This document shows, in pieces, positions 1 to 43,992 of a stretch of 64,000 nucleotides of DNA (the stretch's first letter is position 1; every line of letters starts with the position of its first letter). The translations under genes and the position numbers were made by a program. The stretch spans positions 11,594,001-11,658,000 of the forward strand of contig CM060732.1 of the NCBI GenBank assembly GCA_030704615.1, written 5' to 3'. Below the pieces are notes generated by a model that ran no database searches, had not been told where the DNA came from, and saw only the letters and a program-made list of their open reading frames with translations. This DNA is from Takakia lepidozioides (Eukaryota > Plantae > Bryophyta).

Positions 1-17
1 ACCTCCGGGAGAGCAGG

Positions 18-2109
18 ATGACATGTATGGTATGGCGGAGTTGCCTACCATGGTTGCTCAGACTCCATTGTGGGGCACGAGCAAGGATTTGCAGCGGGAT
101 GCTGATCGACGGGTGCAACAAGCCTGGGTGGAGGCTTTTGTACCGTCAGGAGAGGAGGAGAGTGCGGGGATTGCACCAGGACCACCTCAGTTTGTCTCCA
201 TTGGACACCACACCTATTGTGTGGCAGTATCCGGATGAAGGCATTTGTCTTCTGGACTTGTTTGGCGGGATCAGCACCGGATTGGCTGCTGTGTTACAGG
301 CAGGTGTACGAGTTCGGCGTTACCTGTATGTGGAGAGGGATGAGACTGCACGACGCGTTTCACTTCGCCATGTTGCTCAGTTGGTGCAGCGGTACCCTGA
401 GTTGTTGTCGGTGTCTGCAATTCGTGGATATCAGCAGGCCTTGCCAGACATTTCGTTGCTGGGGGCGCAGGATTTGGAGCGGGTTGGCTCCATTGATCTG
501 GTAGTGGCAGGTTGGCCCTGCCAAGGGCATTCATCAGCCGGGCATGGCAATGGATTGAGCGACGCGAGGCTCGGCTGTGACATGGGCGTGCATGGCCATG
601 CCTTCAGTCCAAAGCCTATCTGATCATGTTTCCCAGCCTAGCATGGCTCCAGCTCTTGGTTGAATGAGTGCGATTCCATCCCAGGCCTACTCTCACAGTA
701 GCATCCTAGCAGCGTCCAGATAATGCCTGTTGTGACACCACACAACCAGTGAGACACTCGTGTGATAAAGGCCCCACTTCATGCGGTCATGCACCATTGC
801 TTAGCAGAGTGTAGGTGTCAGTCATCAGTTTGGATCATACACATGCTACGCCCCTGCATGATGCATTCAACGTGCTTGCCACCTCTGCCGCAACAACACA
901 TGTTCATGACCGCAACTTCAGTGCAGCACTAGCGATACAGAGACGAAGGCCGGCTGATTCGGATTGTGTGGCGGTGCAAGTATTACTGCCTACTACCATC
1001 GACCAAGCAGCAAATGCGGCTTTCATGGCATGTGTTTAGTTGTATGGCCATCCACGAGCTGGTCAGGTTGGCGCTGGCAGCTAGTGTAGCTGACAGTAGG
1101 ACGTCCATTAGGTGCAAGTTCTTCGAAGAGTTTCACGGAGCTTGCAAGAGTTCTGCATGAGGCGCTTGGGGGTTACTTGGTATGGCAAGGAAACGTGACT
1201 CGAGGTCGGGTCTGTTTGGGAGATGGTGCGGGTTTTGCGCCACTTGCAGCTTCATCAAGCTGTATCTCCAGCATACATCTTGGAGAATGTGCCACTGATG
1301 GGCGATTCTCGGGCCAGGGTGATGGCCAGTGTGCATCAAGTCCGGTCGTGGCTTGGGTCAGCAGTGTTGCTAGATGCAGCTACAGTGGGGTCACGGGCTC
1401 ATCGTCCACGGCTATGGTGGACTAACTTGATGCCACCCGCACTGCTCAAGCGTGCATTTGATGGGGTGCAGTGGCCAGCACATCTCACAGTGGATAACAT
1501 TCTGGACACAAGCGTGTGAGACACGATGACCGTTCGCCTTTGGCAGTGGTCAACAAGGTGGGTCAACCACGAGCAGCATTACCTACACTGCTCAGCTTCC
1601 CAGGATCGCATGCTTTCCGGGATAGTGGACCTGGCCTCCTGTGGGATGCTGAGTTGCAGCAGTTAGTGGAGCCTAATGCTGACGAGCGTGAGCGGGCAAT
1701 GGGTTTTACCACTGGTACCACGGCGGTGTCGTCTCTTTCTGAGGCATCACGTCGTCAAGTGTTGGGGCAAGCAATGGATCTCAATTGCTTGACTTGGATT
1801 ATCAGCTTGGCTCTGGCTGAGCAACGCAGAGTGCGGAGTACACTTTCCTCAATGGTCTCTCTGCCTACCGAGACGGTACAGGCAGTGAGTGGGGGCGAGC
1901 ATGTGAGGACCACGGGGTGCATGCATCCATGGCACACGTGGGAGGTGCTCGAGGTTCAGAGGGAGTTGGCAGCCAAGGCGGCTGTGATGGATGAGGTTGG
2001 GGATTCTTCTCGGGTGGAGGAGGTCCTCAAAGATGAGATGATGGGGCAGGATGAGGCCTTGTCATTGACTGAGCAGGTAGGGAGTACTGCTCAAGAGGTT
2101 GCAACATAG
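18..2109 (+). pseudogene. Retrotransposon-encoded DNMT3-like C5-cytosine methyltransferase domain, interrupted by frameshifts and a ~600-bp insert
   Basis: Motif I LLDLFGGISTG, II YVERD, IV VAGWPCQG, VI YILENV, VIII AHRPRLWWTNL, IX ERERAMGF and X RRQVLGQAM occur in order across ORFs 18-623, 1223-1519 and 1516-2109. Confidence 0.92.
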
Positions 2110-5100
2110 CAACCACTGGACGCGTCCTCTACCTCTAAGCCCACTGGACTTAAGGTTGCAGTTACGGAGGACAATTGGGAGCCTGACATTGGACCCATTG
2201 TCACCGGAGGAGAGTGAGGACGTATACGGCGGTTCCTGAGGGCTTACAAGAATTGCTTTGCCTTCAGTTTGAAGGACTTGGGAGCACTGAAGGGTCAAGA
2301 GATCCGTATTGAGTTGGCCACTGACACGCCAAATCTTTCGGAGACCCTATAGATACATTGACATGGAGACGTCTTTGATTCAAATGAGGACTCAAGATCT
2401 CTGGGAGGCAGGTTTGGTGGAGCTCTCTGGTGGAGAGTATGCTTCAGCCAGAGTGATGCCAGCCAAGAAGGATGTCTATGGCAATTGGACGGAGAGACGT
2501 ATGTGCGGTGATTACCGGCCTGTAAATCATCAGACCAAGTCCGATAAGTATGCCATGCCAACACCAGAGGAGATCTTTGATGCCATCGGGCATGCTAAGG
2601 CCTTTAGCACTTTGGATTTACGATCCGGATATCACCAATTGTCAATCAAGGAGGCGGACAAGCAGAAGACGGCATTCTGGGGGATCAATGAGCACGGCAA
2701 GGATTGCCTATATCAGTGGCGGTTCTTACCATTTGGGCTTAAGAATGCCCCTGCAGAGTTTCAGAGAGTCATGGATAGGATTCTAGCAGGGGTGGACTTT
2801 GCTCGGTGCTACATAGATGACATCATCATCTTTAGTGTTACGATGGAGGAGCATGAGAGACACCTTCAGGTGGTATTGGAGCGCTTGAGAGCGCACGGAT
2901 TGAAGTTGCATCCGGGGAAGTGCAAGTTTTTCCACAACCAGATTGAGTATCTGGGTCACATGATATATCCTGGAGGATTGGGGGTACAACAGACTAAGGT
3001 AGAGGCCATTGCACAAATTCCACGCCCCATGGATGTGAGCCGAGTTCGAGCTTTCATGGGGTTGGCAAACTATTATAGACGGTTTGTCAAGGGATTTAGT
3101 ACCATTGCAAAGGCTCTAACCAAGCTGACCAAGGTGGACCAGGAGTGGCAGTGGGAAGATGAGCAGGAACGAGCTTTTCAAGAGCTCAAGGCGAGGTTGA
3201 CCTCGGCGCCTATCTTGAGACGACCTATCAGGGGGCGTCCCTTTCAGCTGCATACGGATTGGAGCATGCTGGGGCTTGGAGCGGTGCTCACACAGGTGGA
3301 TGATGAGGGAAGAGAGTTCGTAGTGGCTTACGCTAGCCGCTCGAACAACGCTGCAGAGGCTAAGTACAGCTCATATGAGGGAGAGTGCTTAGCTGCAGTG
3401 TGGGCCGTGGCACACTTCAGGTGCTATCTATACGGCAATCTTTTCACCCTTGTCACGGATCACCAGCCACTCAAGTGGTTGATGGAGTCAGACAAGCTTA
3501 CGGGGAAGCTTGCATGGTGGGCACTTATACTCCAAGAGTATGACTTTCAGGTTGTGCATCGACCGGGTTTGGTCAATCGGGATGCGGATGGATTGAGTCG
3601 CAATCCATGCATGAGCCAGCAGGATGACACTGGAGCTCGGTGGCATGGTGAGACGGACGAGGAGATGGTGCCGGGATGGCACGCATCTGCATTTTTGTGT
3701 ATCTTGGCATCGGGAGGTCAGATTGGACCTACAACAGGGATGACTGTAGACGCAGTGTCTGAGGACCCTGAGGTTAGTGATGAGCTAGGTGGTGCCAGAG
3801 ATATACATGAGGATTCGGCTGTGTTGGACTACCTCCGTACGGGAGACACGACAGCCATTGTGACTGCCAGGGAGAGGGATCGGATCCTACAACGAGCCAA
3901 GAGGTTCAAGTGGGAGGGGATACACCTACTTCGAGTGTGGGAGGATGGTCGGGTGAGGATTGTGCCTCATCCCACACAGCGTGCAGGGTTAGTGCGGCAT
4001 GCCCATGAGGAGTTGGGGCATTTTGGAGTGCGACTCACTCATAGTTTACTGCAGGGGCAGTATTGGTGGCGTGGTATGCATACAGAGGTGCAACAGTTCG
4101 TGGCTAGGTGCATGGTGTGTGATAGGGTGCGTGCTTCATTCAACGCCCCTACACCACAGTTGCATCCTTTACCAATCATGGGATTGGGCTACAGGTGGAG
4201 TCTTGACTTCGCAGGACCGTTGCCTTTGACTATGCGCCACCACAGATATGTGTTGGTGATGGTGGAGCACTTCTCCAAGTGGATTGAGTTGGTTCCATTG
4301 CCTGACAAGGCTAGTGAGGGGGCTGCGTATGCATTCTTGGATCGTGTGCTTAGCCGATTCGGTGCTCCAGCTGAGGTACTCACGGACCAAGGGAGAGAGT
4401 TCTTGGGGGAGTTTCAGGCTTTGTGTGATAAAGCCTTGATAGACCACCGCACCACTTCTCGGGATCATCCTGAGGCCGATGGCTTAGCAGAGAGAGTTGT
4501 TCAGACGGTGAAGAGGGGTTTGCGCAAGTATGGCTTGCAGAAGGGACACCTAGGAGATTGGGATCTTCAGGTTCCTTGGTTAGCCATGGGCTACAGGTTT
4601 AGCAAACAAGCATCACTTGCCTCCTTCTCACCATATTTCCTTCTCTTTGGCCGAGAGCCGGATCTGCCTGCAGCCATTCGTAGGGACACTGCTCAAGTCC
4701 TTAACCTTGACGATTCGGACGTGTGGGTACGTGCATGTGATCAGCGTGCAGAGTTGTTCAAGAAAGTCATGCCCATGGCTTTTGAGAACCTTGCCATTGC
4801 ACAACACCGTGATACGTTGAGGTATGCCACTATACGTGGTGGAGGATATCGTCCTGGGGTTCGGAGGTTTAGCCCTGGTGACTATGTTTATTTGCAGCAC
4901 ACTGCTCCTACGACTCTGGATGTTACTGCAGGGCGTGTTATTCTGAGGGTTCGAGAGGTGTTGCCCTCAGGGGTCCTGATCTTGGAGGGTCGGGATGGCA
5001 TGACTTGGAAGGACCATGTGCGTAATTGTGCGCCATGTCACCTTCCCAATGTCGATGGCAGAGTTGACCCAAACTTGGCAGTGGTACCTGCAGGTTTGAG

Positions 5101-5245
5101 GTGCATGCTCTGTGGGTCTGCCAAAGGGGCAGCCACCATGCTGGTGTGTGATCGATGCTCAAGGGGTTGGCATATGGGATGCTTGACACCACCTCTTGAG
5201 AAGGTTCCTGACGGAGATTGGTTGTGTCCACACTGCTTGGGATAG
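2110..5245 (+). CDS. pol: Pol: reverse transcriptase, RNase H, DDE integrase, C-terminal PHD finger
   Basis: RT LDLRSGYHQ, PFGLKNAP, YIDD; RNase H TDWS/YEGE/TDH/DADGLSR; integrase HHCC (HEELGH..CMVC), SLDF, TDQG, AER; PHD at 5102-5236. Open from 2309; the N-terminal part (2110-2340) has one TGA and one 1-nt indel. Confidence 0.95.
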
Positions 5246-5490: not shown

Positions 5491-5505
5491 AGCTAGGGGG
5501 GCGAT
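5491..5505 (+). promoter_or_regulatory. Polypurine tract-like plus-strand primer site
   Basis: AGCTAGGGGGGCGAT directly before the TGT start of repeat A; same sequence at 42450-42464 in copy 2. Confidence 0.75.
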
Positions 5506-6169
5506 TGTGTGGACTAGTGACTGCCATAGTTGGGCAGCCTAGTGACTGACTAGTTGTAGCCTAGTGGTTGGACTAGTGGCTGGACTAGTGGTGGACTAGT
5601 GGTATACTAGTGTGTGGTGTGCACATGTGTTGTGTGGTTTTGGACAGCGATGTAGTTGTGTAGCGATATGTATGCGCACGACAGCTGTCAAGTTATTTTA
5701 CCACTAGTGTGAAACTAGCTAGGAAATAGCTAGCTTTTACATATTGACATTTGGGATTGGCCCAAGTATCAATCCAGGGGTCAAGACAGATTTAGGCCCT
5801 GGAGTGGTTATCTTCACGGCAAGCGCGGAAGGCTCATCTTTCTCGAGTTGAGCCTCACCGCGCCTAGCTATGGCGCCGTAGTGTGGATTCCCCATGGCGT
5901 GGGGTGCACTTGGCTTGACTTGTATTTGAGTGATGAGGTTATATATGCATGAGTTTATGCTTCAGATTTGTGAGCTCGTGCTTGTATTCTTCTTCTTTAT
6001 CATTGTGTGGACTAGTGACTGCCATAGTTGGGCAGCCTAGTGACTGACTAGTTGTAGCCTAGTGGTTGGACTAGTGGTGGACTAGTGGTATACTAGTGTG
6101 TGGTGTGCACATGTGTTGTGTGGTTTTGGACAGCGATGTAGTTGTGTAGCGATATGTATGCGCACGACA
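5506..6169 (+). repeat. Split terminal repeat block of copy 1: A1 5506-5683, B 5686-6002, A2 6004-6169
   Basis: A1 and A2 match except for one extra 12-bp GGACTAGTGG-type unit in A1; A/B junction GACA-GC-TGTC; B ends in TATCA. Confidence 0.93.
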
Positions 6170-9490: not shown

Positions 9491-9496
9491 AACAAG

Positions 9497-20572: not shown

Positions 20573-22264
20573 ATGGGGCGCCACAGAAACGGGCCGAGAA
20601 GCTGCGGTGGGCACAAGTTGCTTCTTCTGTTAGGGCTGCAGTTGGTGCTGCTTGTCTTCTTGTTGGGAGCATTGGTGGAATCAGAGGCGTTGTATGTGTG
20701 GTGGGATCGCAGTACACTGCTTCAGGGCAGCCCTCACGATCTGCGATCGGCTGTCAAAGAGGGCACAAGGGTGGATTTGGAGTTGCTTGAGAAGAGGGGT
20801 GTTTTGCTACCCCCACAGAATGCATTGTCCAAGAGACTGCTGGAGCGGAATGCGCAACCGCCCAGGAACCAGGATTTGTATCCGGCGCTGGCAGAGGATA
20901 ATCAAGTCAAGGTGGTGCTGTATGTGCACAACCGGCCGGAGTATTTGCGGCTGGTGGTAGCAGGGCTGGCAGAAGTGGAGGGCATTGCGGAGACGCTCTT
21001 GATTGTGAGCCATGATGGGTTTTATGAAGAAATCAACTCGATTGTCGAGGGCATCCGCTTCTGCCAGGTCAGTTTTCGGCATTTTGTTTTCGGGAAGGGC
21101 AAGAAGAGAGGGCAGCTCGTTGGAAAGGGCGATATAAACTTGTAAAAGCGGAAGAAGGTCGGTGTATGCTCCATTTCCAGTAGTAAACTTTGTTTCATTT
21201 CATTTCCTTTGACCGGTGGACACCTCCCAGGTCTTTTCAAAGAGCTTGTACCTATTCACATCATAAATTAATGGCAGGTGAAGCGAATACTATGCCCCGT
21301 GGTCACCCCATTTGTTCCCGGATTCCTTCCCCGGGCCTGGGCATTGCGAGATGAATAACACTGCCGACGAGTGGGGATGCAAAGCCGATCTGGACCAGAA
21401 TGGCAACCATCGGGAAGTTCGGATTGTGTCTCTCAAACACCACTGGTGGTGGATGATGAATACTGTATGGGACGGGTTGGAAGAGATAAAGGGCTTTGAT
21501 GGCCACATTGTGTTTATAGAGGAAGACCACTATCTCCTGCCCAATGCTTACCGAAACATTCAAACTCTCGTCAGAATCAAAGCTAAGAAATGCCCCATTT
21601 GTGTTGCTGCGAACATCGCACCTGCGTACTCAAAGTTTAGGGGCGAACGGACAGACTATTTGTTTGTAGAGAAGATTGGCCGTGTGGAGGAATATCCATG
21701 CTCAAGCAGAGGCTTTCTGCTCTTTCGACGACTATAACTGGGATATCACGATGTGGTCCATCGACTTTCCTACCATGGGAAATCCTTTGCATACTCTGCG
21801 TGGGCCTCACAGCAGCCTAATCAACTTCGGACAATGTGGTCTCCATCAAGGGCATGCGAGAGAGAAACAAAGAGTAGGAGACCTCACAACATCTGCAAGA
21901 AGCCTAAACAGCTTCTGGGACCAACTGATTGAAATAAATAGCTTCTGGGACAAATTGATTGAAATAAACAAAGATACACACAACAAGAAGGAACTCAACC
22001 CAGCATGTGAAGAAGACCTGGATATGGAAGAAATAGACGGTGCCAAATATCAATCCTGAATGGGAAGTCCGATTGTACAAAACTGCAGGGTATGTTTTCG
22101 GTTTCAAAGGACATGGAGGGTGGGGCGATGAGAGGGATCAGCACCTCTGCCTAAGCTTTTCCTCCATGTATACTGAATTGGAGCCACTGGGGGATTGGTG
22201 CATAGGCAAAGATGGTGATTCTACCCAAGAAGAGGAACAGACGAGTATGCATACACTGTACTGA
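20573..22264 (+). pseudogene. MGAT2: Alpha-1,6-mannosyl-glycoprotein 2-beta-N-acetylglucosaminyltransferase (GnT-II, GT16), frameshifted
   Basis: N-terminal TM segment; VLYVHNRP, LIVSHDG, SLKHHWWW, FIEEDH, FDDYNWD, GGWGD.RD..LC; intron 21068-21277; frameshifts near 21290, 21680 (short deletion) and 22040. Confidence 0.85.
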
Positions 22265-30077: not shown

Positions 30078-31047
30078 GCTCCTGCTCTTTATCGGGCTGC
30101 CTCTCCGCTCCCCCATCTTTCCTCTACCACTCTCACTTCACCAAGCGCGCTTCAAACTGGAGCAGAATTCGTGGGCAGTACATAACCATCAAACCAAAAA
30201 GCAGCCTCCTCTCTATCTTTACCGCTCTTCCAGCCTCCAAGACGCATCAACACCCCTCATCAACCACTCGCTCTAATCCTCGATTCTCCGCGAAGCAGCT
30301 CAGATCCCCAAACACCCTCCCTCCCAATCCCCCACACGGAATGCTGATCAGCAGTCCTGCTGTCTTGCCTGGCGAGGTGGAACTTGTTTGCGCTCGCACG
30401 GCCCGTGTGAACACCCAGGTCCTCAAAAAGATGCTTCGCGCACCCCATTCGTCCACGTTTCCATTCGGGCTCTCCTGTTTTGTTGCAATGTGTGGCGGTT
30501 ACCGCGGTGACGTACCCACTGGGATTTTTTATCTGCTCAATACTCATTATTAACCACGTCCAACGATTTTATTTTCCTTTTCTTTTTCTTTTTTTATAGA
30601 ACATCATTGGGAGGCCCTGGATTTTTTTTTTAAATTTTAATGAACAGGGGACAGAAGCCCTTTTGTTTTAAAATAATTAATAAATACAAAAGGAGGGCGT
30701 AATTTTTTATGTTCCCAAGGAATTTTTGTTTTCCAATTATTTCGGATAAACAAACTTTAAGGAAAAACAAAACACGAAGTAAAACCAAAGCTAACATTAA
30801 AAAAACAAAATTCAATTTTCTGCATGACAACTGGAGGAAAGCGAAATATAAAATATAATTTAAAGGAAAATCTGAGTATAAATGGTTATTGTGTAGTATT
30901 TAGAAAATATGCACTCTAGTTTTATTTTCAGAAAAAGGGAAAAGAAAACAAAAGAAACCTCACGGGCCGCGCCGAGATACTTGTGTTTGTTTTTTTCTTT
31001 CTCATTGCGAATATACACAAGGAGTAGAGTGAGAAAGATGTTGAACA

Positions 31048-31395
31048 TGTCAAGTTAAATAAGCACAGTGTGAAAACAGCTAGAATAAAACTAGTTATTT
31101 GTATTTAACACTTGGATTTAGGTCAAGTGTTAAATCAGGTGTCAAGTTTAGTTTGACACCTGGTCCGTCTTATCTTCACGAGAGCGGCAGTCGCGCGGCT
31201 CATCTTTCTCGAGTTGAGCCTGCGCGACCGAGCTCCTGCATGTGTTTAGATTTGAGTGTGCGTATGTAGGGGTACAGGTTGTTGTGGGGTGGAGTCCCCA
31301 TAGCTTGGGGTGCCCCTGGCTCGACTACTATTTTCTAAGAGTGATGGTTTGGTTTTCATGTTTTGTGTCACAGTGTGTTCGATGGATTTCTATCA
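31048..31395 (+). repeat. 5' terminal repeat B1 (348 bp)
   Basis: No difference from 42552-42899 found by eye; TGT...TATCA ends. Confidence 0.95.
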
Positions 31396-31408
31396 CTCGA
31401 GAAAGATG
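31395..31408 (+). promoter_or_regulatory. Putative self-priming primer-binding site
   Basis: ACTCGAGAAAGATG is the exact reverse complement of CATCTTTCTCGAGT at 31201-31214; there is no TGG-type tRNA PBS here. Confidence 0.7.
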
Positions 31409-31484
31409 CTCTCTTACCTGTGAGTGCAAGGTAGGAGTTGAGGGTTAGCACTTGCAAGATTACCTGCGTATAAGTAGTGATTAG

Positions 31485-31605
31485 TTTGAGAAGCATATCA
31501 TTGAATGTGACCACAAGATTCAGCGTGCCCTGAAACGCCTGGAGGATGACGATGCCAGAGCCGCCATTGTTATTGCAGTCGCTGAAGCTACCAAGTCACT
31601 AGAGG
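31485..31605 (+). pseudogene. Captured LUC7-like (U1 snRNP) coding fragment
   Basis: IIECDHKIQRALKRLEDDDARAAIVIAVAEATKS resembles plant LUC7-like ECDRKI.RALKRLE..DAKAAIAISVSEVT. Confidence 0.65.
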
Positions 31606-32059
31606 CTTTGGGGTACACAAGGAGATACTTAAAAATGCAGCAGCAAATGCTAGTTGGCACCTATGCATGATCCTTGAAGCTGGATGATCGTTTCACCAGT
31701 AAGCCTATAGAGGAGCCTGCTGTTGCAATTGATTTTTGTATCGGGGTTGGTCTTGGACCAAAATTTAGCTTCAGCTTCTTTGTCAATCATTTGCTTTGAT
31801 CATGCAAGAGCGCCATGCAGCGGGTTAAGGGGCAGGGCTATGGAGCAGAAAAGCGGCATCCTCTTCGCAATGCGCAGAGGATGGAGTTCCGTGTATATGG
31901 TTGCTATGGAGCCTCGCCAACAGCAGAACTTTGCGCTTTCCGTTCTTGGGGTTGCTGCATTGTATGCGCCCTAGGTTCCGGGCTTGGAATTGTCTTCTGA
32001 CCAATTCAGCAGAAACGAACGACGAACGTATTCTGGCCTGATTCCCTACAGTAAGCAGG

Positions 32060-32805
32060 CGATATATAGCTCAACGCCATCAACGAGTACACCCAAGGAG
32101 GTTGTACACCACAACAAGTGCCGTCAGAATCTTGTCACCAAAGGATTCAGGCCAAGCAGCATACGATGGCCACCTCACGGCCAGGCTTGGAACGGCTCTT
32201 ACCATACCATATGAGGAACTTGTCGAAGTAGAGGAATAAACTTTCACAGACATGTCTGGCGAGATTTGAAAGAGTAGTTTTCTTGCTTTGATGTTGTTTC
32301 ATGTCCTCTGGTTCATGGAGCTCATGACAACAAAAGTCGAGCGGCAGCGGACGTACTGGGCGCCGAGCAGAAAGGATGGTCAGGGGGACGACTGTTTCCC
32401 TTGCCCAGCAGCTAAAGTCGTAAAGATTGAAGTCCACCATGTTCAGAAATCCATTTTCGAGCTGCTACCATGGATGCTTCATTGGGTTGGGATCCTGACG
32501 CTTTTAAGGCCACATAACACTTGACGGTGGTGCTAAGGTCACCTGCAGGAGCTTCATGATAAGTGTCCCAGGATCCGTCAGTTCTTTGCAGGCTCCGAAT
32601 GCAACGCACGACTTTTTCTTTCTTTGGGTCATCTGTAACGCCCAGGAAATGCATAGCCAGAATCCACTCCGCTTCCATTGTACAGCTTGATTCGACCTGG
32701 CCCGCCCAATAGTCCTCTGGATTCTGCTTACGGAAACTCCAGTCAATTGCATCGTTGATGACCTGATCAAGCGGTGTTGCATCTATGGACTCGAATGCTC
32801 CCATA
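32060..32805 (-). pseudogene. SHC: Captured 5' part of a squalene-hopene cyclase gene
   Basis: QNPEDYWAGQVESSCTMEAEWILAMHFLG, QRTDGSW, GDLSTTVKCYVALKASG, FNLYDFSCWARETVVPL, QDSDGTCCGVQPPWVYSLMAL; internal deletion near 32430 and two TGA stops. Confidence 0.88.
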
Positions 32806-33635
32806 CACCCACTTCCCTGCAGTAAGCAGTTCACATTCACAAAAGTGCTAGAGTTTCAGCTGCAGGATGGAGACGACGGGTTTGGGAACGGCGGAGCCGA
32901 GCTACGCTGGGGATAGACGGGCGATTCAGGAGCCAGGGCTTTCTCCCCCGTAACTGGAATGGGCCGGGGACCCGCAAGCTCCAGCACAAAGTCCAGTGCT
33001 TCCCGCTGGTAATCCTCCTCAGTGATTTATCGTTAGCCACCAAGGCCTCGAGCAGACTGTGAGTGACCCCTCGCCTGTACATGGCGTCCATAAACATGTC
33101 CATAAACATGTCTTTCCTCCCCCTCTCTTGGTGCGCAAGCCTGCAAGCAATCACGGAATCCACTCTCTTTCACAACAAGACACTACTGAGTGCCACAATT
33201 CCCTCTCTCTCTCTCTCTCTCACTCTCGGTATGCAGAAGACTGGAGCAAGGTGCGAATTATAGGGCACGTGGCCAGGGAACCTAGGAAAGAACGTAGGGA
33301 ACTGGGAACCAGTTACCAGATAGTTTGGGTAACTTTAAATTTTTAAATTTGAAAACCTTCAAAAAAAAAAAAAACAGGGCATTTTGATCTAATTTAAATG
33401 ATGTAAAGCCAAATTGGTCATATCTTTGTCAAATGAACTCTGTTTGACACAGTTTTTGAGGGGATAGCTGTAGAAAGGGGAAATCTACCTATCTAGACCT
33501 GGTTTCTGTTTTTGGGACTCTGCTAAAAATCTATGGAATTTTTAGAGTGTGAGTGTGCCACGAAATATCCACAATCCTGTTTCTAGAACCTGTGCTGGCC
33601 TATATGAGAGACAAACCTGTGGATGTACTCCTTGC

Positions 33636-34385
33636 ATGGCTGGGGGAAATGAGGACGTAATTGAAGGGCAGGTCTCTTCTCTTAGCCTGTGCACACAAGG
33701 GGACAGGATTTATGTTTCCCAAGGAACTCAGACTGATTTGAGTGGAGAACAGTTGGACGAGTTGATTGCATACTGGGAGTCAGGCATTAGCAGTAGACAA
33801 CAGACTGCTGTAGTTGGCATTGAGGGCCTCAATATCGCCTTGGACAGTCAGAACTCTGTTGGAGCCAGCAGTTCTGCAGCTGTAGGTGAAATACCAAAGT
33901 GGGTGAAAGCTAGGCTTGGAACACAGCCAAAGACAGCACCGGGGACCAAGGTGTTCAGCCACAAGGCCGTGGTGTACTGGAGCAGAGGAGCAGGAGCTGC
34001 ACAAGTTTGTGCAATTAGACAGTGTTGCAGTCGGACACGCTCTGCACAAGGCAACCACGAGCGGGGGTTCATTAGCGAGGACAAGTTTGTTCTGTTTGAA
34101 GGCGATGCAGTCATTCGCAATGAAGACACCCGCAACCGTCTCAAAGCTTTCGAGTTGAGAGACTATCAGACCCTACCTTTGTTTTCTTTAGTGTTCAGTG
34201 AGCGGGAGATAGCAGAGTGTTGCTTTGTCTCTACCTGGCAGAAAGAGGAGGAGGGTTGGTTAGAGCGAGCTACTGTAGCTTGGGACAAGGTTAGTGGCAG
34301 GTTTCTGGACATAGATATACCTCCTACACCTTACCATCAAGCAGAGCGAGGTACTTTGAGAGAAGTCTGGAAGTTGATAGCATAG
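33636..34385 (+). CDS. Extra ORF upstream of gag, unknown function (249 aa from the first ATG)
   Basis: Uninterrupted 750-bp frame inside the element, same strand as gag; no motif recognised. Confidence 0.55.
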   Translation: MAGGNEDVIEGQVSSLSLCTQGDRIYVSQGTQTDLSGEQLDELIAYWESGISSRQQTAVVGIEGLNIALDSQNSVGASSSAAVGEIPKWVKARLGTQPKTAPGTKVFSHKAVVYWSRGAGAAQVCAIRQCCSRTRSAQGNHERGFISEDKFVLFEGDAVIRNEDTRNRLKAFELRDYQTLPLFSLVFSEREIAECCFVSTWQKEEEGWLERATVAWDKVSGRFLDIDIPPTPYHQAERGTLREVWKLIA

Positions 34386-34897
34386 ATCAGGGTTAGATCT
34401 TGCTTGGGCGGGCTTCTATTCTTCCCCTCCATCTCTGTACTATTTTCATTACCTTGTACTTGTAGTTGCCAAAGCCTCTCTTGGTGGAGGCCAGTCAGTC
34501 CGGGGTCTTGGGCTGGGATATTCTGCAGGATCAACGTTGCTGCTGGATTTTGGTGTGGGGGTGTTGATGTTTTGATTTCTTGTGTTTGGATCCCCCCCAA
34601 CACCTGCATGCTTGACTGTGCGCCATGTTGGTTTTGTGTGGGCGCTTGCTTTCATAGGGATTAGGCCGGATTTGATCACCGGTCAATCCTAGAGTATGCT
34701 GTCGGTGGTGAGGCTGGAGTGATGACCAGCAAGACCACCAGTGTTTCTTCTATGGTGAGGCTGGATTGATGACCAGCCAACCATAGGAGTTCTTGCGGTG
34801 GATGCAGGTGCAGGTGCCCTGAGCCATTGGGATATGACCCTTAGACTGCAACAGGTGCCCACCCGTGTCACTATTAGATTAGTACTAGAGCCTTATA

Positions 34898-37400
34898 GTG
34901 TCACTGGAGGAGGTGCACATTGTGAGTGTCATTACGGAGTTACCCAAGGGTTTTGAGGGGAGTACGGCTACAGGCAGTAACAGTGAGAGTGGGTTCACAA
35001 GACGAGGTATTCGGTTCAGACCACCTTCACCGCCCCCCTCAATTACTGTAGAGTCAGACACAGGCTCGGAGGCTTCATCAACAGGTGTGCACTTTCATTC
35101 GCCATTGTTGTGGGACGACATGGAGGAGATGTATGGAGCTACCAAGGGGCCTCGTAGGTACTCTGGAGCTGTGGGCACAATCGAGTTGGATGACTTTATC
35201 CAGGAGTTCGACAGCTGGTGTGATTTGCAGCAGATGCGCAATCCACATCTATTCACCCCATTCATGGCGTGGAAGGGACTGTTCCAGCATTTGGAAGGCC
35301 CGCCTATGGACGATTACCACGAGTTCAGGCGAGGACATGAAGCAGAGATTGAGGAGTGGAGGATGTATTGGTCACCTGACTACATCTCCATTACTCGAGG
35401 CATGACGCGACCAGTAGCTGCATCAGTACCAATAGCTCCCACTGCCAGCACTAGTAGTGGAGCAGGTAGTGCTGGTACTTCTGCAGGTGGTACCAGTTCA
35501 GAAGGTGCTACTACTCCTCCTGCCACAGCTACAACACATGTGCCTAGATTCAACCCGGTGGTGGAGTTCTTCCAGGAGTTGCGGAGGAACTACCAAGGTG
35601 TACGGACAGAGAAGCTACGAAGTTTGCAAGACTTCCAGCGCAAACCCAGTGAGAGCCTGCGAGAGGCGTACACTCGTATGAGGCGCTTGATAAGTGTGAC
35701 CCAAGGGGTTACTGAAGCTCAGGCAATCCAGTTTTGGTATGGAATTCTGGACAAGGAGCTCAAGAGAAGGGTGCGAGATGCAACCCTGTTACAAGCAGCC
35801 CAACCCACATTAGCAGATGTGTTTCTGCTGGCTGAGCGGATTGAGCTCAACATGGTGGAGGAACGAGTTGTTACAATTGGATTTGGCAAGGACATGCCTG
35901 TACGGGGCACAGCTGTCAGCCCACAAGCACAAGGGACTGCCCAACAGCGTGGACAGGGGGGCAAGGTTGCCCAGCCCAAGTTCCATGGAGCTTACAGGGG
36001 GCCTCAGGTGCAAAGGCCCGTGGCATCTTTTGCAGGCCAACAGCAACCAGGGGTGATATGTTGGACATGTGGAGGACCCCATGTCAAGAGAGATTGCCCA
36101 GAGAGTGGCAGAAGGCCGGCACAAGCACAGCCTGCACAGTTGCAGTGTGGGCATTGTGGCAAATATGGGCATGGAGATGCCCAGTGTTATGACTTACATC
36201 CTGAGTTGCGCCCAGGCCAGTTCCAAGGGAACAATGGTGGCCGGGGGCGAGGTGGACCAGCCCAGAGAGGACGAGGTGGTCGGGCACGAGGTGCAGGCCA
36301 AGGGCAAGCTCAACATGGCCAAGGACGCGGAGGTCAGGGCGTTGATCAAGGCATGGCCAACCGGCTTCAGCAGCTAGAGCAGAGGCTCGCTGCCATGGCT
36401 ATAGCTCAGGCGGTACCGGCTCCCAGGCGGGATGGTCCACCTCCTGCTCCTGAGGGAGGAGATATGGGAGGCATGGGATTTATGTGCGGAGCAGCACTAC
36501 CACTAGAGCAGGTGGAGTCTGCTGCAGCCGTGACTCGAGGAGCAGCACGAGTTCCTGAGCCACGAGGTGCAGAGGTGGAATTGGATCCACAGCGTGGGGA
36601 GGCAAGCCGTCAGGCAAGGCTTCCTCAGTCATTCACATTGGCGGAGACTGTGTCAACGCCATCCATGGCACCTAGTTCTCGCCCGACTGTTACCGAGGCG
36701 GAGGTTACTATGCCATTGGGGAGAGCTACACGTGCAGCATTGACTCCTGCTGCCAAGGCTAGTGCGGCCGGTGTGTTATTGGGGGCAGCCACCTCTGTGT
36801 GTCAGGCCCCACTGTTCTCGGCAACAATGATTGCGACGCCGGGGGTGAGACCAGCTGCAGTGTTCAGACTAGCAGCAACACTCTGTGAGAGTGGGGAGGT
36901 CACTTCATCTTCTGCGGAGTTAGTGGAAGGTGTAGTGGCAGAGGGATCCTCGGATTTGAGGGTCAAGACTGCCACGGTAGCGCCCTGGCAAGCTGCAGCT
37001 ACTAGGTTGACGGAGCTGCCAGCTAGGCCAGCCATTGAGCGCGCCATGGTGACACCTGGAGTTGTCTTGTTAGACAACCAGGGAGGCATTTTCACTTTGA
37101 GTGGACCGGCAGGCAAGAAGTACCGGCCACTGCGGGTCTTGTTGGACTCAGGAGCTCAGCCACTGATGTTGGGCAGAGCTGCTATTGCAGGTTTGGGCCT
37201 CATGGAGGCGGATATGGAGCCTTGTCCTTTCCAGATACAGACATCTCTGGGAGGATCAGAGCAGGCTCGCGGCATGACACGACATCAGTTGGCTATAGAC
37301 TGCAGCCGGATCATCCTGTAGATGGCTCAGTGATGCGAGCCAAGGCCATTGTGACAGACGCGGTCTCTTACGATGTCCTCGTTGGTGGGGGGCAGTGTTA
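34898..37400 (+). CDS. gag: Gag-protease
   Basis: MHR-like QRKPSESLREAY; zinc knuckles CWTCGGPHVKRDC and CGHCGKYGHGDAQC; RGG-rich tract; aspartic protease LLDSGA, with YDVLVG after a frameshift near 37300. Confidence 0.9.
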
Positions 37401-37829
37401 TACCCCATGGGCTTCACCCTGGATTTCTGGGAGGAGTCAGCATCCTACAGGCCTGGATGGCAGTCAGGGGATGGTCGCCGTGCACAGCTCCCTGTGACAT
37501 TCATTGGGGGTATTGCAGCTGCCCAGCGGGCCAGATGCCAACACTAGCCGCCTTCACACTGCCGTTAGTTGGCCTGGAGAGTTGCTGGAAGCAATGTCCA
37601 TGCAGAGGATGTGCCACCTCCAGCAGAGCAGGATGACATGCATGGTACGGCGGAGTTGCCGCCATGGTTGCTCACACCCCGTTGTGGGGTACGAGCAAAG
37701 ATTTGCAGCAAGCTGCTGATGGACGGGTGCAACAAGCTTGGGAAGAAGCTTTTGTACCGTCAGGAGAGGATTGCAGAGTGCGGGATTGCCAGGGCCACCT
37801 CAGTTGTCGCCATTGGACACACACCTTTG

Positions 37830-39093
37830 TGTGGCAGCGGCCGGATGAAGGCATTTGCCTTCTGGACTTGTTTGGCGGGATCAGCACCGGATTGGCTGCT
37901 GTGCTACAGGCAGGTGTGCGGGTAAGGCGTTACCTGTATGTGGAGAGGGATGAGACTGCACGACGCGTCTCACTGCGCCATGTGGCTCAGTTGGTACAGC
38001 AGTACCCTGACTTGTTGCCTGTGTCTGCAGTTCGTGGATACCAACAAGCCTTGCCAGCAGACATTTCTTGTTGGGGGCGCAAGATTTGGAGCAGGTTGGC
38101 TCCATTGATCTGGTAGTGGCAGGTTGGCCCTGCCAAGGGCATTCATCAGCCGGGCATGGCAATGGATTGCGAGACTCGAGGACGGGTCTGTTTTGGGAGA
38201 TGGTGCGATTTTGCGTTGCTTGCAGCTTCATCAAGCTGTATCTCCAGCATACATCTTGGAGAATGTACCACTGATGGTGATTCTCGGGCCAGGGTGATGG
38301 CCAGTGTGCATCAAGTCCGGTCGTGGCTTGGGTCAGCAGTGTTGCTGGATGCAGCTGCAGTGGGGTCACGGCTCATCGTCCACGACTATGGTGGACTAAC
38401 TTGATGCCACCCGCACTGCTCAAGCGTGCATTTGATGGGGTGCAGCGGCCAGCACACCTCACCGTGGATGGCATTTTGGACACAGGAAGGCAGTCTCAAC
38501 GTGTGAGACACGATGACCGTTCGCCTTTGGCAGTGGTCAACAGGTGGGTCAACCACGAGCAGCATTACCTACACTGCTCAGCTTCCCAGGATCCCATGCT
38601 TTTCGGGATGGTGGACCTGGCCTCCTGTGGGATGCTCAGTTGCAGCAGTTAGTGGAGCCTAATGCCGACGAGCGAGAGCGGGCTATGGGGTTTTCCACTG
38701 GGACCACGGCGGTGCCTTCTCTTTCTGAAGCATCACGTCGTCAGGTGTTGGGGCAAGCAATGGATCTCAATTGCTTGACCTGGATTGTCAGCTTGGCTAT
38801 GGCTGAGCAACGTAGAGTGCGGAGTGCACTTCCCTTGACGGTCTCTCTGCCTACCGAGACGGTACAGGCAGCGAGTGGGGGCGAGCCGGTGAGGACCACG
38901 AGTGTAGACATCCATGGCACACGTGGGAGGTGCTCGAGGTTCAGAGGGAGTTGGCAGCGAAGGCAGCTGTGATGGATGAGGTTGGGGATTCTTCTCGGAT
39001 GAGGAGGTTCTCAATGATGAGATGATGGGGCAGGATGAGGCTTTGTCATTGACTGAGCAGGAAGGGGGTACTGCTCAAGAGGTTGCAGCATAG
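37830..39093 (+). pseudogene. DNMT3-like C5 methyltransferase domain of copy 2 (1-nt indels)
   Basis: LLDLFGGISTG, VAGWPCQG, ENV, HRPRLWWTNL, ERERAMGF, RRQVLGQAM; ends at TAG 39091-39093. Confidence 0.92.
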
Positions 39094-42000
39094 CAACCAC
39101 GGGACGCGTCCTCTACCTCTAAGCCACTGGACTTAAGGTTGCAGTTACGGAGGACAATTGGGAGCCTGATATTGGACCCATTGTCACCGGAGGAGAGAGA
39201 CGACGTATACGGCGGTTCCTGAGGGCTTACAGGAATTGCTTTGCCTTCAGTTTGAAGGACTTGGAGCACTGAAGGGTCAAGAGATCCGTATTGAGTTGGC
39301 CACTGACACGCCAATCTTTCGGAGACCCTATAGATACAGTGACATGGAGAGGTCTTTGATTCAGATGAGGACTCAAGATCTCTGGGAGGCAGGTTTGGTG
39401 GAGCTCTCTGGTGGAGAGTATGCTTCAGCCACAGTGATGCCAGCTAAGAAGGATGTCTATGGCAATTGGACGGAGAGACGTATGTGCGGTGATTACCGGC
39501 CTGTAAATCGTCAGACCAAGTCCGATAGGTATGCCATGCCAACACCAGAGGAGATCTTTGATGCCATTGGGCATTCCAAGGTCTTTAGCACGTTGGATTT
39601 ACGATCCGGATATCACCAGTTGCCGATCAAGGAGGCGGATAAGCAAAAGACGGCATTCTGGGGGATCAATGAGCACGGGAAGGATTGCCTATACAGTGGC
39701 GGTTCTTACCATTTGGGCTTAAAAACGCTCCCGCTGAGTTTCAAAGAGTCATGGACAGGATTCTAGCAGGGGTGGAGTTTGCTCGGTGCTACATAGATGA
39801 CATCATCATCTTTAGTGCTGCGGTGGAGGAGCATGAGAGACACCTTCAGGGGTATTTGAGCGCTTGAGGAGCGCACGGATTGAAGTTACATCCGGGCAAG
39901 TGCAAGTTTTCCACAACCAGATTGAGTATCTGGGTCACATGATATATCCTGGAGGATTGGGGGTACAGCAGACTAAGGTAGAGTATTGCACAGTTCCACG
40001 TCCCACGGATGTGAGCCGATTCGAGCTTCATGGGTTAGCAAACTATTACAGACGGTTTGTTAAGGGATTTAGTGCCATTGCAAAGGCTCTAACCAAGCTG
40101 ACCAAGGGGACCAGGAGTGGCAGTGGGAAGATGAGCAAGAACAAGCTTTTCAAGAGCTCAAGGCGAGGTTGACCTCGGCGCCCATCTTGAGACGACCTAT
40201 CAGGGGGCGTCCTTTTCAGCTGCATACAGATTGGAGCATGCTGGGGCTTGGAGCGGTGCTCACACAGGTGGATGATGAGGGAAGAGAGAGAGTTCGTAGT
40301 GGCTATGCTAGCCGCTCGAACAATGCTGCAGAGTCTAAGTATAGCTCATATGAGGGAGAATGCTTAGCTGCAGTGTGGGCCGTGGCACACTTCAGGTGCT
40401 ATCTATACGGCAATCTCTTCACCCTTGTCACGGATCACCAACCACTCAAGTGGTTGATGGAGTCAGACAAGCTTACGGGGAAGCTTGCACGGTGGGCACT
40501 CATCCTTCAAGAGTATGACTTTCAGGTGGTGCATCGACCGGGTTGGTCAATCGAAATGCAGATGGGTTGAGTCGCAATCCATGCACGAGCCAGCAGGATG
40601 ACACTGGAGCTCGGTGGCATGGTGAGACGGACGAGGAGATGGTGCCCGGATGGCATGCATCTGCATTCTGTGTATCTTGGCAGCGGAAGGCAGGTTGGAC
40701 CTACAACAGGGATGACTGTAGATCAAGTGTCTGAGGACCCTGAGGCCAGCAATGAGCAGGTGGCGCCAAAGATATACATGAGGATTCAGTTGTGGTGGAC
40801 TACCTCCGCAGTGGAGACACGGCAGCCACTATGACTGCCAAGGAGAGGGATCGGATCCTACAACGAGCCAAGAGGTTCAGGTGGGAGGGGGACACACCTG
40901 CTCCGAGTGGGGAGGATGGTCGAGTGAGGATTGTGCCTCACCCAACACAGCGGGCACGGTTAGTGCGGCATGGCCATGAGGAGTTGGGGCATTTTGGGGT
41001 GCGACGCACTCATAGTCTACTGCAGGGGCAGTATTGGTGGCGTGGTATGCACACAGAGGTGCAACAATTTGTGGCTAGGTGCATGGTGTGTGACAGGGTG
41101 CGTGCTTCATTCAACGCCCCTACTCCACAATTGCACCCTCTTCCGATCATGGGATTGGGCTACAGGTGGAGTCTTGACTTCGCAGGGCCGTTGCCACTGA
41201 CCATGCGCCACAACAAGTACGTGTTGGTGATGGTGGAGCACTTCTCCAAGTGGATTGAATTGGTTCCATTGCCTGATAAGGCTAGTGAGGGAGCTGCGTA
41301 TGCATTCCTGGATTGTGTGCTTAGCCGATTCGGTGCTCCAGCTGAGGTACTCACGGACCAAGGGAGAGAGTTCTTGGGGGAGTTTCAGGCTTTGTGTGAC
41401 AAGGCCTTGATAGACCACCGCACCACTTCCGGGATCATCCTGAAGATGATGGCTTGGCAGAGAGAGTTGTTCAGACAGTGAAGAGGGGTTTGCGCAAGTA
41501 TGGCTTGCAGAAGGGACACCTAGGAGATTGGGACCTTCAGTACCCCTGTTAGCCAGGGCTACAGGTTTCAGCAAGCAAGCATCACTTGCCTCCTTCTCAC
41601 CATACTTTCTTCTCTTTGGCCGAGAGCCGGATTTGCCTAAATTCCATTCGCAGAGAAGCTGCTACAGTTCTTAACCTTGACGATCGGACGTGTGGGCACG
41701 TGCATGTGAGCAGCGTGCAGAGTTGTTCAAGAGAGTCATGCCCATGGCTTTCGAGAACCTTGCCATTGCAAACACCGTGATACGTTGAGGTATGCTACCA
41801 TACGTGGTGGGGCTATGTCCTTGGGTTCGGAGATTCAACCCTGGTAGGTGACTATGTCTATCTGCAGCAGAAGCTTACGACCTGGATGTGACTGCAGGAC
41901 GGGTTATTTGATAGGGTTCGAGAGGTATTGCCCTCAGGCGTATTGGTCTTGGAGGGGTGGGATGGCATCACTTGAGGACCAGTGCGTAAATGGTTTGCGC

Positions 42001-42204
42001 CATGTCAACTTCCGAATGTCGATGGCAGGATTGAACCAAACTGGCAGGTGTATAGTGCAGGTTTGAGGTGAGGTTGGTGGGTAGTAAAGGGGCGCCACCA
42101 TGATGTGTGTGATGATGGTCTAAGGTTGGCATATGGGGTGCTTGACTCCACCTCTTGAGATGGTTCCAGATGGGGATTGGTTATGTCCACAATGCATTGG
42201 ATAG
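39094..42204 (+). pseudogene. pol: Pol RT-RH-IN-PHD of copy 2, with many small indels
   Basis: Colinear with 2110-5245; YIDD, TDWS, SLDF and TDQG motifs and PHD end VPDGDWLCPQC. Confidence 0.92.
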
Positions 42205-42464
42205 TGGGAGTGGATACAACCATGGGAGACTAACAAGCAACGCAAGGCCCAGCTACTAGGAGACCTTGAACACACGAGGTCCTGGCTCAAGTTCACAGAT
42301 TGCAAGATGGCGACTAACGATGGGGCTACTCTTGTACCCGGCCTCTTGGTCTATAGAGTTTGAGTACAATAGGGACAGTGATAGAGGACTTAGTACGGCT
42401 GTGGCTATTACATCTTGTAGCTATCTGGAGGTAGAGGGACCTATCCACCAGCTAGGGGGGCGAT

Positions 42465-42985
42465 TGTGGCAGACTACTTTATTGTGCATATATGTATGGT
42501 GTGGTTTGGACAGCGATGTAGTTGTGTAGCGATATGTATGCGCACGACAGCTGTCAAGTTAAATAAGCACAGTGTGAAAACAGCTAGAATAAAACTAGTT
42601 ATTTGTATTTAACACTTGGATTTAGGTCAAGTGTTAAATCAGGTGTCAAGTTTAGTTTGACACCTGGTCCGTCTTATCTTCACGAGAGCGGCAGTCGCGC
42701 GGCTCATCTTTCTCGAGTTGAGCCTGCGCGACCGAGCTCCTGCATGTGTTTAGATTTGAGTGTGCGTATGTAGGGGTACAGGTTGTTGTGGGGTGGAGTC
42801 CCCATAGCTTGGGGTGCCCCTGGCTCGACTACTATTTTCTAAGAGTGATGGTTTGGTTTTCATGTTTTGTGTCACAGTGTGTTCGATGGATTTCTATCAT
42901 TGTGGCAGACTACTTTATTGTGCATATATGTATGGTGTGGTTTGGACAGCGATGTAGTTGTGTAGCGATATGTATGCGCACGACA
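42465..42985 (+). repeat. 3' split repeat block of copy 2: A1 (85 bp)-gc-B2 (348 bp)-t-A2 (85 bp)
   Basis: Direct comparison of 42465-42549 with 42901-42985 and of 42552-42899 with 31048-31395. Confidence 0.95.
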
Positions 42986-43992
42986 AACATCAATATGCAT
43001 CATCCAGGGCTGGTGACTCAAGAGACTGGATTCACCGGTTTGTGCCATGAATCTAGCGCCTGGAAAATGATGGATGTGACGCAGGGATCATGTTCTGTAC
43101 AACATATTGACAACATCCCACAAAGGCTTATGTTATGTAATCTCTCGCCAAGAACTTTCGTATTTTTCCCTTTGGAAATATAATTGACCTTGCCGTAAGC
43201 TCGTAAGGTCATGAAAGGGACCCCTTAGGGAAAAAGGCGCTAGTTATCAATGTTGATGCTCCCAACCTTTCCAAACCCCACAAATGCACATTTTGGCGTC
43301 ACCGAGTTATGCTGATTCTCTGCGTTGGCCTTGGGTATGGTTGTTGCTACCCCTAGGCAAGTATTAGGTGTAGAGGAAGGCTAGAGGAGGGCGCTCCTTG
43401 ATTTTCATGCCCAAGGACCACCCTTAGGGAGGATCTTCCTTGTGTAAAGAAATGGGATGATTTCTTTCTCCTTAATCGTTTCTTTTGATAATGAAAAGAA
43501 ATGGGACTAGTGAAGGAAAAGATAGGGCCCACCCCCAAAAGGGGGTAGTAGGCGCAATGCGAAGTTGCTCTTAGTTACGCCGGTTTCGGCTGGAGTCTTC
43601 TTCTCTCTCTGAAGGAAAAGATCTTGGAGGTAAAGATAAGAGAATGCCGGAGGTGCGCATTACACAAAGTGTGATCGACACTGTGCATTATATATTTTTT
43701 GTAATGCCCTCATACTCATGGCTGGCTATTACGCTGCAGGACGAAACAATATTAACAAAGAGAAATCAGCCCCATTTCTTTACGCTTCCATGTCACCTCA
43801 GCCTTATAAAGAAAAAGGTGTAAAATGAAAGAAATGTCCGCTGACAAGACTCAGTGCCACACTTGACAAGGACGTAAGGTCACACTCAGATATTATGTTT
43901 CTTTTCTTTTTTCTTTCTTTTTCAAAGGAAACACCTAGGGAGCGACAACTTACAAATTAGGCCCTTCAATTACAGTGAGAGGAGAAAATAAC

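Follow-up and report, generated by a model that had tools for sequence, protein, structure and literature searches.

A Ty3/gypsy retrotransposon family in Takakia lepidozioides with a DNMT3-like cytosine methyltransferase domain, a readthrough-type stop and split terminal repeats

We analysed a stretch of 64,000 nucleotides from Takakia lepidozioides (GenBank assembly GCA_030704615.1, contig CM060732.1, positions 11,594,001 to 11,658,000 of the forward strand), hereafter the window, whose first letter is position 1. It holds two copies of one Ty3/gypsy retrotransposon family that carries a domain resembling the cytosine methyltransferase DNMT3, and it is close to certain that this is a gypsy family whose DNMT3-like domain is under selection. 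Read from the sequence, the overall layout is gag, protease (PR), methyltransferase (DNMT), a stop codon, reverse transcriptase (RT), RNase H (RH), integrase (INT) and a PHD finger. Why a transposon should carry an enzyme that silences transposons has been a question since 2018, when the known cases were confined to algae without good genetics. Marchantia polymorpha has methylation mutants and also relatives of the family with an unbroken first open reading frame (ORF1; for example Mp_4g09160, 1278 aa), which makes the question testable there.

Results

Two copies of one gypsy family

Copy 1 lies at 1-6169, its 5' part falling beyond the window start, and copy 2 lies at 31048-42985. An alignment of the two over 4825 bases shows 358 differences and 74 gaps, so that they are about 93% alike; the domain order gag-PR-RT-RH-INT of Ty3/gypsy elements is present in their open frames and Pfam matches. 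The gag of copy 2 matches Retrotrans_gag with an E of 0.003 and is colinear with the Marchantia protein P0002. The repeats of copy 2 consist of two segments, A and B, each present twice and each pair exactly identical (A1 = A2 and B1 = B2), and the insertion is therefore young. A preliminary description of this DNA, made from its letters, had supposed a recently active family, and these identical pairs bear it out. The features of the element are as follows (related loci are numbered L, related proteins P and runs X).

31048..42985, + strand: copy 2, entire element, 11.9 kb, with TGTCA...CGACA ends and a 4-bp target duplication, AACA, at 31044-31047 and 42986-42989
31048..31395, + strand: copy 2 repeat A1, 348 bp, predicted promoter part, R and U5; identical to 42552-42899
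31201..31214, + strand: copy 2 predicted self-primer, the RNA 5' end; 14-nt perfect complement of 31395-31408
31395..31408, + strand: copy 2 predicted primer-binding site, directly at the CA end of A1; site and self-primer covary in L039, L040 and L072
34889..37318, + strand: copy 2 gag (probable start 35060), two zinc-knuckle-like stretches and the start of the aspartic protease, in an 810-codon open frame
37830..38870, + strand: copy 2 DNMT3-like C5 cytosine methyltransferase domain, with frame breaks; from motifs, Pfam, structure matches and the ratio of replacing to silent substitution rates (dN/dS)
39091..39099, + strand: copy 2 in-frame stop, TAG CAA CCA (CAR-YYA context), a sequence pattern
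39094..42200, + strand: copy 2 RT-RH-INT-PHD, with many single-base breaks; about 90% BLAST identity to copy 1
42454..42463, + strand: copy 2 polypurine tract, directly 5' of B1; the same tract precedes B in related loci
42464..42985, + strand: copy 2 3' end, with B1 at 42464-42549 (86 bp), a GC spacer, A2 at 42552-42899 and B2 at 42900-42985
232..1830, + strand: copy 1 DNMT3-like domain, interrupted at about 570-1190; from motifs and Pfam PF00145
2107..2115, + strand: copy 1 in-frame stop, TAG CAA CCA, a sequence pattern
2291..5242, + strand: copy 1 open RT-RH-INT-PHD frame, 984 codons, PHD at about 5102-5236; Pfam RVT_1, RT_RNaseH, Integrase_H2C2, rve and PHD
5505..6169, + strand: copy 1 3' end, with B1 at 5505-5683, GC, A2 at 5686-6002 and B2 at 6003-6169; from repeat comparison

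Neither copy has an unbroken methyltransferase domain: that of copy 2 is spread over three frames, and that of copy 1 is interrupted by frame breaks and by an insert of 600 bp. The gag of copy 2 runs for 2.4 kb without a break, and many single-base gaps follow from the protease to the PHD finger. A 2173-base contig from another study (run X5) aligns to 38721-40879 with 7 differing letters and 24 gap letters. The copy 1 insert (589-1176) is not covered at all in any of four runs, of which two are probably from the source sample, and it has no match among the sequences compared. The insert is likely an assembly artefact and the breaks in both copies are likely for the most part assembly errors; contigs lose rare variants, and their cover cannot prove the breaks of copy 2 to be errors. 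Contigs of X5 span most of the element and not its flanks; X5 and a further run, X7, are only guessed to be RNA and were not counted as expression. Summed contig depth, which is not a copy number, reaches 50,000-290,000 over the element against 27-49 at its flanks, and the family is plainly abundant in the source genome.

An unpermuted DNMT3-like methyltransferase domain

The preliminary description had placed a C5 methyltransferase domain in both copies, with its motifs in normal order and not permuted as in plant DRM enzymes and, in copy 2, behind the protease, and had proposed a search with Pfam PF00145. Both copies do have the domain where it was placed. In copy 2 the protease motif LLDSGA, at about 37140, precedes motif I (LDLFGG, from 37862), motif IV (GWPC, Cys codon 38131-38133), the ENV of motif VI (38259-38267), the HRPR of motif VIII (about 38374-38386) and motifs IX and X (about 38670-38765), and the open frame ends at the TAG of 39091-39093; the Cys codon of copy 1 is at 519-521 and its stop at 2107-2109. 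Motifs I, IV, VI, VIII, IX and X follow one another in this unpermuted order in both copies, and PF00145 scores 38.9 and 22.8 bits in the two, above its cut-off of 22. The motif strings quoted earlier proved to be those of DNMT3A itself; the window reads LDLFGGISTG, AGWPC, HRPRLWWTNL, ERERAMGF and RRQVLG. The placing of the domain immediately before RT needs amending, for it does sit between protease and RT, but about 110 residues and an in-frame stop intervene. Similarly, the enzyme belongs to a polyprotein insofar as it closes the gag-protease ORF, but it does not lie inside an uninterrupted Pol.

The unbroken liverwort relative P0011 finds its best match among solved structures in DNMT3A/B/C, at 44 bits, against 23-32 bits for DRM and 18-22 bits for bacterial enzymes and DNMT2. 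A profile built from 12 relatives scores 74 bits with DNMT3A, 37-46 with DRM and 270 with the protein of the Klebsormidium element discussed below, and an AlphaFold model of the relative P0010 (pTM 0.78) has DNMT3A as its top Foldseek match (E 5e-16). DRM2 matches the first part of the domain only, and the circular permutation of DRM was not encountered. Host plant DNMT3 (PpDNMT3a/b) has a C-terminal DUF3444 and works de novo in heterochromatin (PMC6453930). The domain of the window family shares the unpermuted catalytic fold of host DNMT3 and of animal DNMT3A, to which it is about 22% identical, but it comes without DUF3444, PWWP or ADD, and a domain scan of P0002 and P0254 found no DUF3444. 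Unlike the multi-exon host DNMT3 gene, it is encoded without introns in a single ORF inside the element. ORFs of this kind inflate DNMT counts in bryophyte genomes.

Residue conservation was counted in 204 proteins found by HMMER, the Cys counts of metagenome loci being circular, and so unused, because the scan pattern contained the Cys. Of 198 aligned relatives, 197 retain the catalytic Cys; the Glu of ENV is retained in 198 of 201, and the RxR of motif VIII has its two Arg in 196 of 199 and 193 of 198. The catalytic PC reads EC in 94 of 197 aligned relatives (among proteins P0121-P0324), Glu replacing the Pro before the Cys. This form, unusual for a C5 methyltransferase, is found mostly in the chlorophyte type of the family (60 EC and 35 PC in a motif count).

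Between the two window copies the dN/dS of the domain is 0.22 (312 codons; 43 silent and 31 replacing changes), compared with 0.12 for RT, 0.16 for RNase H and 0.12 for integrase. The distant pair L037 and L040 gives 0.064 for the domain and three near-saturated pairs give 0.09-0.16; for most distant pairs dN/dS is saturated and without value. The preliminary description had named a domain missing or decaying in most family members (dN/dS near 1, catalytic Cys lost) as an outcome that would speak against it. This was not found, the window pair standing at 0.22 and the Cys being kept almost throughout. As judged from these comparisons of sequences, the domain is under purifying selection.

A lineage shared by bryophytes and green algae

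Proteins of Marchantia, Sphagnum, Calypogeia and Riccia are 66-79% identical to the window over the C-terminal half of the domain (best 120 of 133 matches), and a profile search returned 479 clusters (50% identity) at E < 1e-30, of which the best 150 were examined. Two domain orders occur. DNMT lies before RT in bryophytes, Closterium and Klebsormidium, with a piece in Spirogloea, and it lies between RNase H and integrase in Hariotina, Haematococcus, Monoraphidium and many further members. The proteins of these three chlorophytes (P0155, P0177 and P0178) and locus L050 carry RT-RH-DNMT-INT-PHD in one ORF. A DNMT tree of 54 selected rows puts the two orders on opposite sides of one branch (99/96); since the chlorophyte-type domains form a single branch, the domain would have moved once within pol or gag-pol. 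The same tree groups the window with liverwort proteins (100/99); it contains no host DNMT3 outgroup and does not formally show a single origin of the domain. In an RT-RH tree of 52 selected rows, built by a quick method, all 44 family rows, the K. nitens element among them, stand together against 8 outside gypsy proteins (SH-aLRT 100), and Calypogeia and Marchantia are the closest to the window. RT-RH identity to the window is 80% for Calypogeia, 76% for Coleochaete and 58% for Klebsormidium nitens KFL_013780010. By these trees the host would probably be a bryophyte, and the PPR and squalene-hopene cyclase pieces described below agree with that, although Coleochaete comes close in identity. 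The Coleochaete protein P0347, from the transcriptome of C. scutata, is a complete RT-RH-INT-PHD ORF, seen without its DNMT part.

The published element closest to ours is KnitGypsy-Dnmt3 of K. nitens, which has gypsy domains, DIRS-like repeats and a Ka/Ks under 0.2, and whose authors regard the capture of the domain as peculiar to the K. nitens lineage (de Mendoza et al. 2018, PMC5890265). As described there, it shares with the window family the gypsy domains, an unpermuted and intronless DNMT3-like domain, purifying selection and A1-B1-A2-B2 repeats. The K. nitens protein GAQ93235.1, the neighbour of KFL_013780010, is colinear with ORF1 of Marchantia over the protease-to-DNMT stretch (29% over 569 aa, E 1e-54). 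Because the proteins are colinear and RT-RH is 58% identical, the window family is of the KnitGypsy-Dnmt3 lineage, so that the land-plant family of the preliminary description is indeed present in land plants but is not a separate capture. The authors place DNMT in the RT ORF of KnitGypsy-Dnmt3 (PMC5890265; the K. nitens parts appear in NCBI as two partial proteins), whereas in the window family a conserved stop of leaky type separates the two, making it a variant of the lineage and not KnitGypsy-Dnmt3 itself. The window family differs further in having a land-plant host, in being very abundant and in being young, and self-priming, an att-like junction and a PHD finger are absent from the text on KnitGypsy-Dnmt3 in sections 9-11 of that paper. 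PHD fingers are accessory domains of green-algal transposons (PMC8557442). On these sequences the lineage spans streptophytes and chlorophytes and is far wider than published.

Later papers, in the portions available, mention the family only as streptophyte (PMC12344493; bioRxiv 10.64898/2026.05.21.726589), and the available portion of PMC11982613 has nothing on a gypsy-DNMT3 family. We found no report of a land-plant or chlorophyte gypsy-DNMT3 element in a literature search whose scope left aside subscription papers, Repbase reports, theses and the supplements of PMC5890265 and of the 2026 preprint; the names KnitGypsy or Gypsy-Dnmt3 turned up in 2 papers. A search of viral contigs yielded no element, only 6 loci with short distant matches. 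Prokaryotic genomes yielded one, L072:1-9285 (CADCWO010000201.1), which lies in a cyanobacterial genome bin and has ORF1, a TAG CAA TCA stop, pol, the repeat junction and the self-primer described below; it is probably a eukaryotic contig in a cyanobacterial bin. Proteins similar to those of L072 (P0098, P0181 and P0462) are labelled bacterial.

A readthrough-type stop between DNMT and pol

ORF1 comprises gag, protease and DNMT and ends about 110 residues past motif X, at the same place as in unbroken relatives from Marchantia (1248-1278 aa) and metagenomes. The reading frame continues past the TAG into pol, leaving one stop in the common frame between DNMT and RT/RNase H. The string TAG CAA CCA has only two matches on the plus strand of the window, one per copy and both at this position. 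A pol anchor was held by 33 of 65 metagenome loci (copy 2 was left out of this tabulation, its row being shifted by a break). The stop in these 33 is TAG (25) or TAA (8), the next codon is CAA (31) or CAG (2) and hence CAR throughout, and the codon after that is CCC in 28, CCT in 1 and YYA in 4. The element L072 is unbroken and has its TAG CAA TCA ahead of a 1047-codon pol. UAG followed by CAR YYA is the readthrough signal of tobacco mosaic virus, with the downstream ORF in frame (PMC2754532), and both window copies and L072 share with it the UAG CAR YYA context and the in-frame downstream ORF. Judging from this context, the methyltransferase is likely made at the level of Gag, and RT-integrase at a fraction of that level.

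Predicted self-priming and split ends

Copy 2 is built as A1, the interior, the purine tract, B1, GC, A2 and B2, and copy 1 has the same 3' end. The complete A...B-gc-A-B layout recurs in L039 and parts of it in L003, L020, L022 and L054, and four of the five elements having both ends show an exact 4-bp target duplication. Standard long terminal repeat (LTR) finders would likely mis-cut or miss such elements, as there is no equal LTR pair at their ends.

No tRNA-type primer site was found behind A1 of copy 2. A predicted self-primer within A pairs with the site behind it over 14 nt in copy 2, where 5000 shuffles gave 11 nt or fewer, and is kept in the A of copy 1 (5835) despite the two A segments being only about 70% alike. 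With different sequences, the pairing recurs over 17 nt in L032, L036 and L039, 16 nt in L040 and 13 nt in L072; all pairings are placed at the CA end of A, and decayed copies have 8-11 nt or none. This covariation across four sequence types points to self-priming of the Tf1 kind, an assignment made for the window family from sequence only. Tf1/sushi elements and the plant Tcn1 chromoviruses likewise have a self-primer in the repeat and no tRNA primer site, and some fission-yeast Tf1/sushi members have an in-frame stop before pol (PMC6317226; bioRxiv 10.1101/2022.12.06.519325). Compared with these as described there, the window family has a PHD finger and not a chromodomain at the integrase C-terminus, its stop after protease and DNMT and not after gag, and split repeats and not two equal LTRs.

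With A ending at the primer site and B beginning at the purine tract, the reverse-transcribed repeat should be B-gc-A. The joint between A2 and B2 brings together the base beside the primer site and the base beside the purine tract, exactly so in six elements (both window copies, L020, L022, L039 and L054). B1 and A2 meet in a palindrome, CGACA-gc-TGTCA, which both copies have and which recurs with few changes in 8 loci, including the chlorophyte-type L050. The contig of L050, collapsed and permuted, shows the junction and a pairing of only 12 nt, and split repeats were not confirmed in it. The ends of the element are thus halves of its internal palindrome, which suggests integration from a circle; such ends predict an unusual route for an LTR-type element.

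Shorter A...B forms, ending at B1 without A2-B2, were seen in L019 (6065-14704), L006, L010 and L025, and L019 has an exact TACA duplication. By their sequence they would fit a circle with one repeat or later recombination between B1 and B2.

The split ends could also have arisen without a joined circle, either by a route like that of PAT and Ngaro elements, in which B2 is copied from RNA, or by internal cutting of linear DNA. This is a question separate from that of the enzyme's role. The A1-B1-A2-B2 layout defines PAT and Ngaro, and PAT also has a methyltransferase (PMC4157794); the short forms of L019, L006 and L010 exist, and B1-B2 recombination after insertion can yield them. The window family departs from PAT and Ngaro in its DDE (rve-type) integrase, its TG...CA ends and its 4-bp target duplication, and a Pfam scan of the window frames gave no tyrosine recombinase match. 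Moreover, B2 lies outside what primer site and purine tract would copy unless ends are joined, and the A|B joint is exact in all six elements. We regard a route without a joined circle as rather unlikely.

Discussion

How the element might use its enzyme

The reading we favour, with confidence only a little above even, is that an active enzyme, packaged at Gag dose, methylates newly made DNA of its own element, and that this DNA would be inserted from a circle-like form under PHD guidance. De Mendoza et al. (2018, PMC5890265) had earlier put forward self-methylation of the cDNA. RNA would start within A and prime itself on the site behind A1, as in Tf1. Most ribosomes would halt at the UAG to give Gag-PR-DNMT and a minority would read through to give RT-RH-INT-PHD, whereby the methyltransferase would become far more abundant than RT and would be packaged together with the RNA. 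Reverse transcription would yield DNA with a true LTR, B-gc-A, whose ends would be joined into a circle or circle-like form; integrase, opening the internal CA-gc-TG palindrome with a 2-base stagger, would leave exactly A...B-gc-A-B. The methyltransferase would mark the DNA before or during insertion, so that it would enter a methylated genome resembling host DNA, and the PHD finger would steer integrase through histone marks.

More tentatively, and rating it as less probable than not, we propose that an old gypsy lineage, spread across all green plants from chlorophytes up to mosses and liverworts, has an active de novo DNMT3 that it packages at Gag dose, and that the normal substrate of its DDE integrase is a circle opened at the palindrome. 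If this were true, the DNA delivered by the element would already be methylated, the element could act in bryophyte genomes as a mobile source of de novo methylation, and it would realise the circle-junction route rejected for retroviruses.

A number of observations weigh against this account. No circle was seen here, and retroviruses integrate linear DNA, the circle-junction model having failed for them (PMC11054761). In the peat-moss-like family the codons after the stop are CAA CCC or CAA CCT in 29 of 33 loci, one base off the readthrough consensus, and the loci that inform the stop context are mostly near-copies, representing about five independent lineages. A Gag-level dose is not needed everywhere, for in Closterium and in several relatives from metagenomes a single ORF encodes DNMT and RT, and chlorophyte-type elements place DNMT between RNase H and integrase. 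Close pairs of decayed peat-moss-like copies give a dN/dS of 0.32-0.95, as is expected after insertion. Base composition reveals no target context: CG and CHG content equals that of the flanks, with a CG observed-to-expected ratio of 0.45-0.58 in the coding parts and 0.53 at the flanks. The K. nitens domain, finally, gave no methylation in yeast, a test that its authors call inconclusive (PMC5890265).

Other roles for the domain

The enzyme might act not on new cDNA but on host chromatin or integrated copies: produced in excess and unattached to integrase, it would enter the nucleus and methylate the insertion site or sister copies, thereby limiting copy number or reshaping the host methylome. 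Output at Gag level would yield much free enzyme; in the chlorophyte type DNMT adjoins integrase and the PHD finger; plant DNMT3 works de novo in heterochromatin (PMC6453930); and action on host chromatin is among the options of de Mendoza et al. (PMC5890265). The abundance of the family, at the contig depths given above, is however unlike that of an element that limits itself, and a benefit in trans would also serve cheaters without the domain, yet the domain is kept in both architectures. On this evidence we consider a host-directed role the leading alternative, although an improbable one.

Less probable again is that the domain binds DNA or RNA without catalysis, or that it methylates the element's RNA. 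The negative yeast result for the Klebsormidium domain (PMC5890265) and the EC form of the catalytic motif in nearly half of the aligned relatives could be taken in its favour, but the near-invariance of the Cys, the Glu and both Arg over 204 proteins and a fold of DNMT3 and not DNMT2 type argue for catalysis on DNA. Two further groups of retrotransposons carry a cytosine methyltransferase, as the window family does. SymbioDIRS-Dnmt3, a DIRS-class element with the same repeat layout, has a DNMT3-type enzyme reported to be active on CG (PMC5890265), which also speaks against an inert domain; the enzymes of EpiLTRs are sister to DNMT4 and occur with an adenine methyltransferase and a chromodomain (bioRxiv 10.64898/2026.05.21.726589). 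That a host DNMT3 gene was captured by chance, or that the arrangement is a nested insertion or a chimera of assembly, as the noisy assembly of these repeats might bring to mind, is refuted by the same position of the domain in two copies, in unbroken Marchantia ORFs and in Klebsormidium, by purifying selection, by the want of introns and of DUF3444, and by same-sample contigs that cover the domain deeply.

The 5' region of copy 2 and other features of the window

Two features of the 5' region of copy 2 lie between A1 and gag.

31488..33159, no strand assigned: host-transcript-like pieces; Pfam PF13249 and run X7 contig matches
33546..34382, + strand: unexplained 279-codon open frame upstream of gag; no Pfam match

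The host-transcript-like pieces are three, one of them an N-terminal piece of squalene-hopene cyclase (32150-32855, minus strand, PF13249), which is antisense and lacks about 110 bases present in the matching contig. Contigs of run X7 match all three pieces and then run on unlike them; summed depth is 330-560 here against 27-49 at the flanks, and this roughly tenfold depth suggests a small subfamily that carries the host-like pieces. The 279-codon frame has no match in related loci or proteins either, its Atlas matches stay below 0.9, and same-sample contigs cover it deeply.

Elsewhere in the window there are pentatricopeptide repeat (PPR) gene fragments with 134-bp tandem duplications at 8600-10000 (minus strand), and host genes for an MGAT2-type glycosyltransferase (20567-21734, plus strand) and a gamma-glutamyltranspeptidase (48094-50997, minus strand), together with a multi-exon host gene without Pfam match at 60214-63306 (minus strand). 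A RING-like frame (15132-16019, plus strand) and a kinase-like frame (18066-18632, minus strand) stand amid tandem repeats and are probably decayed mobile or duplicated DNA.

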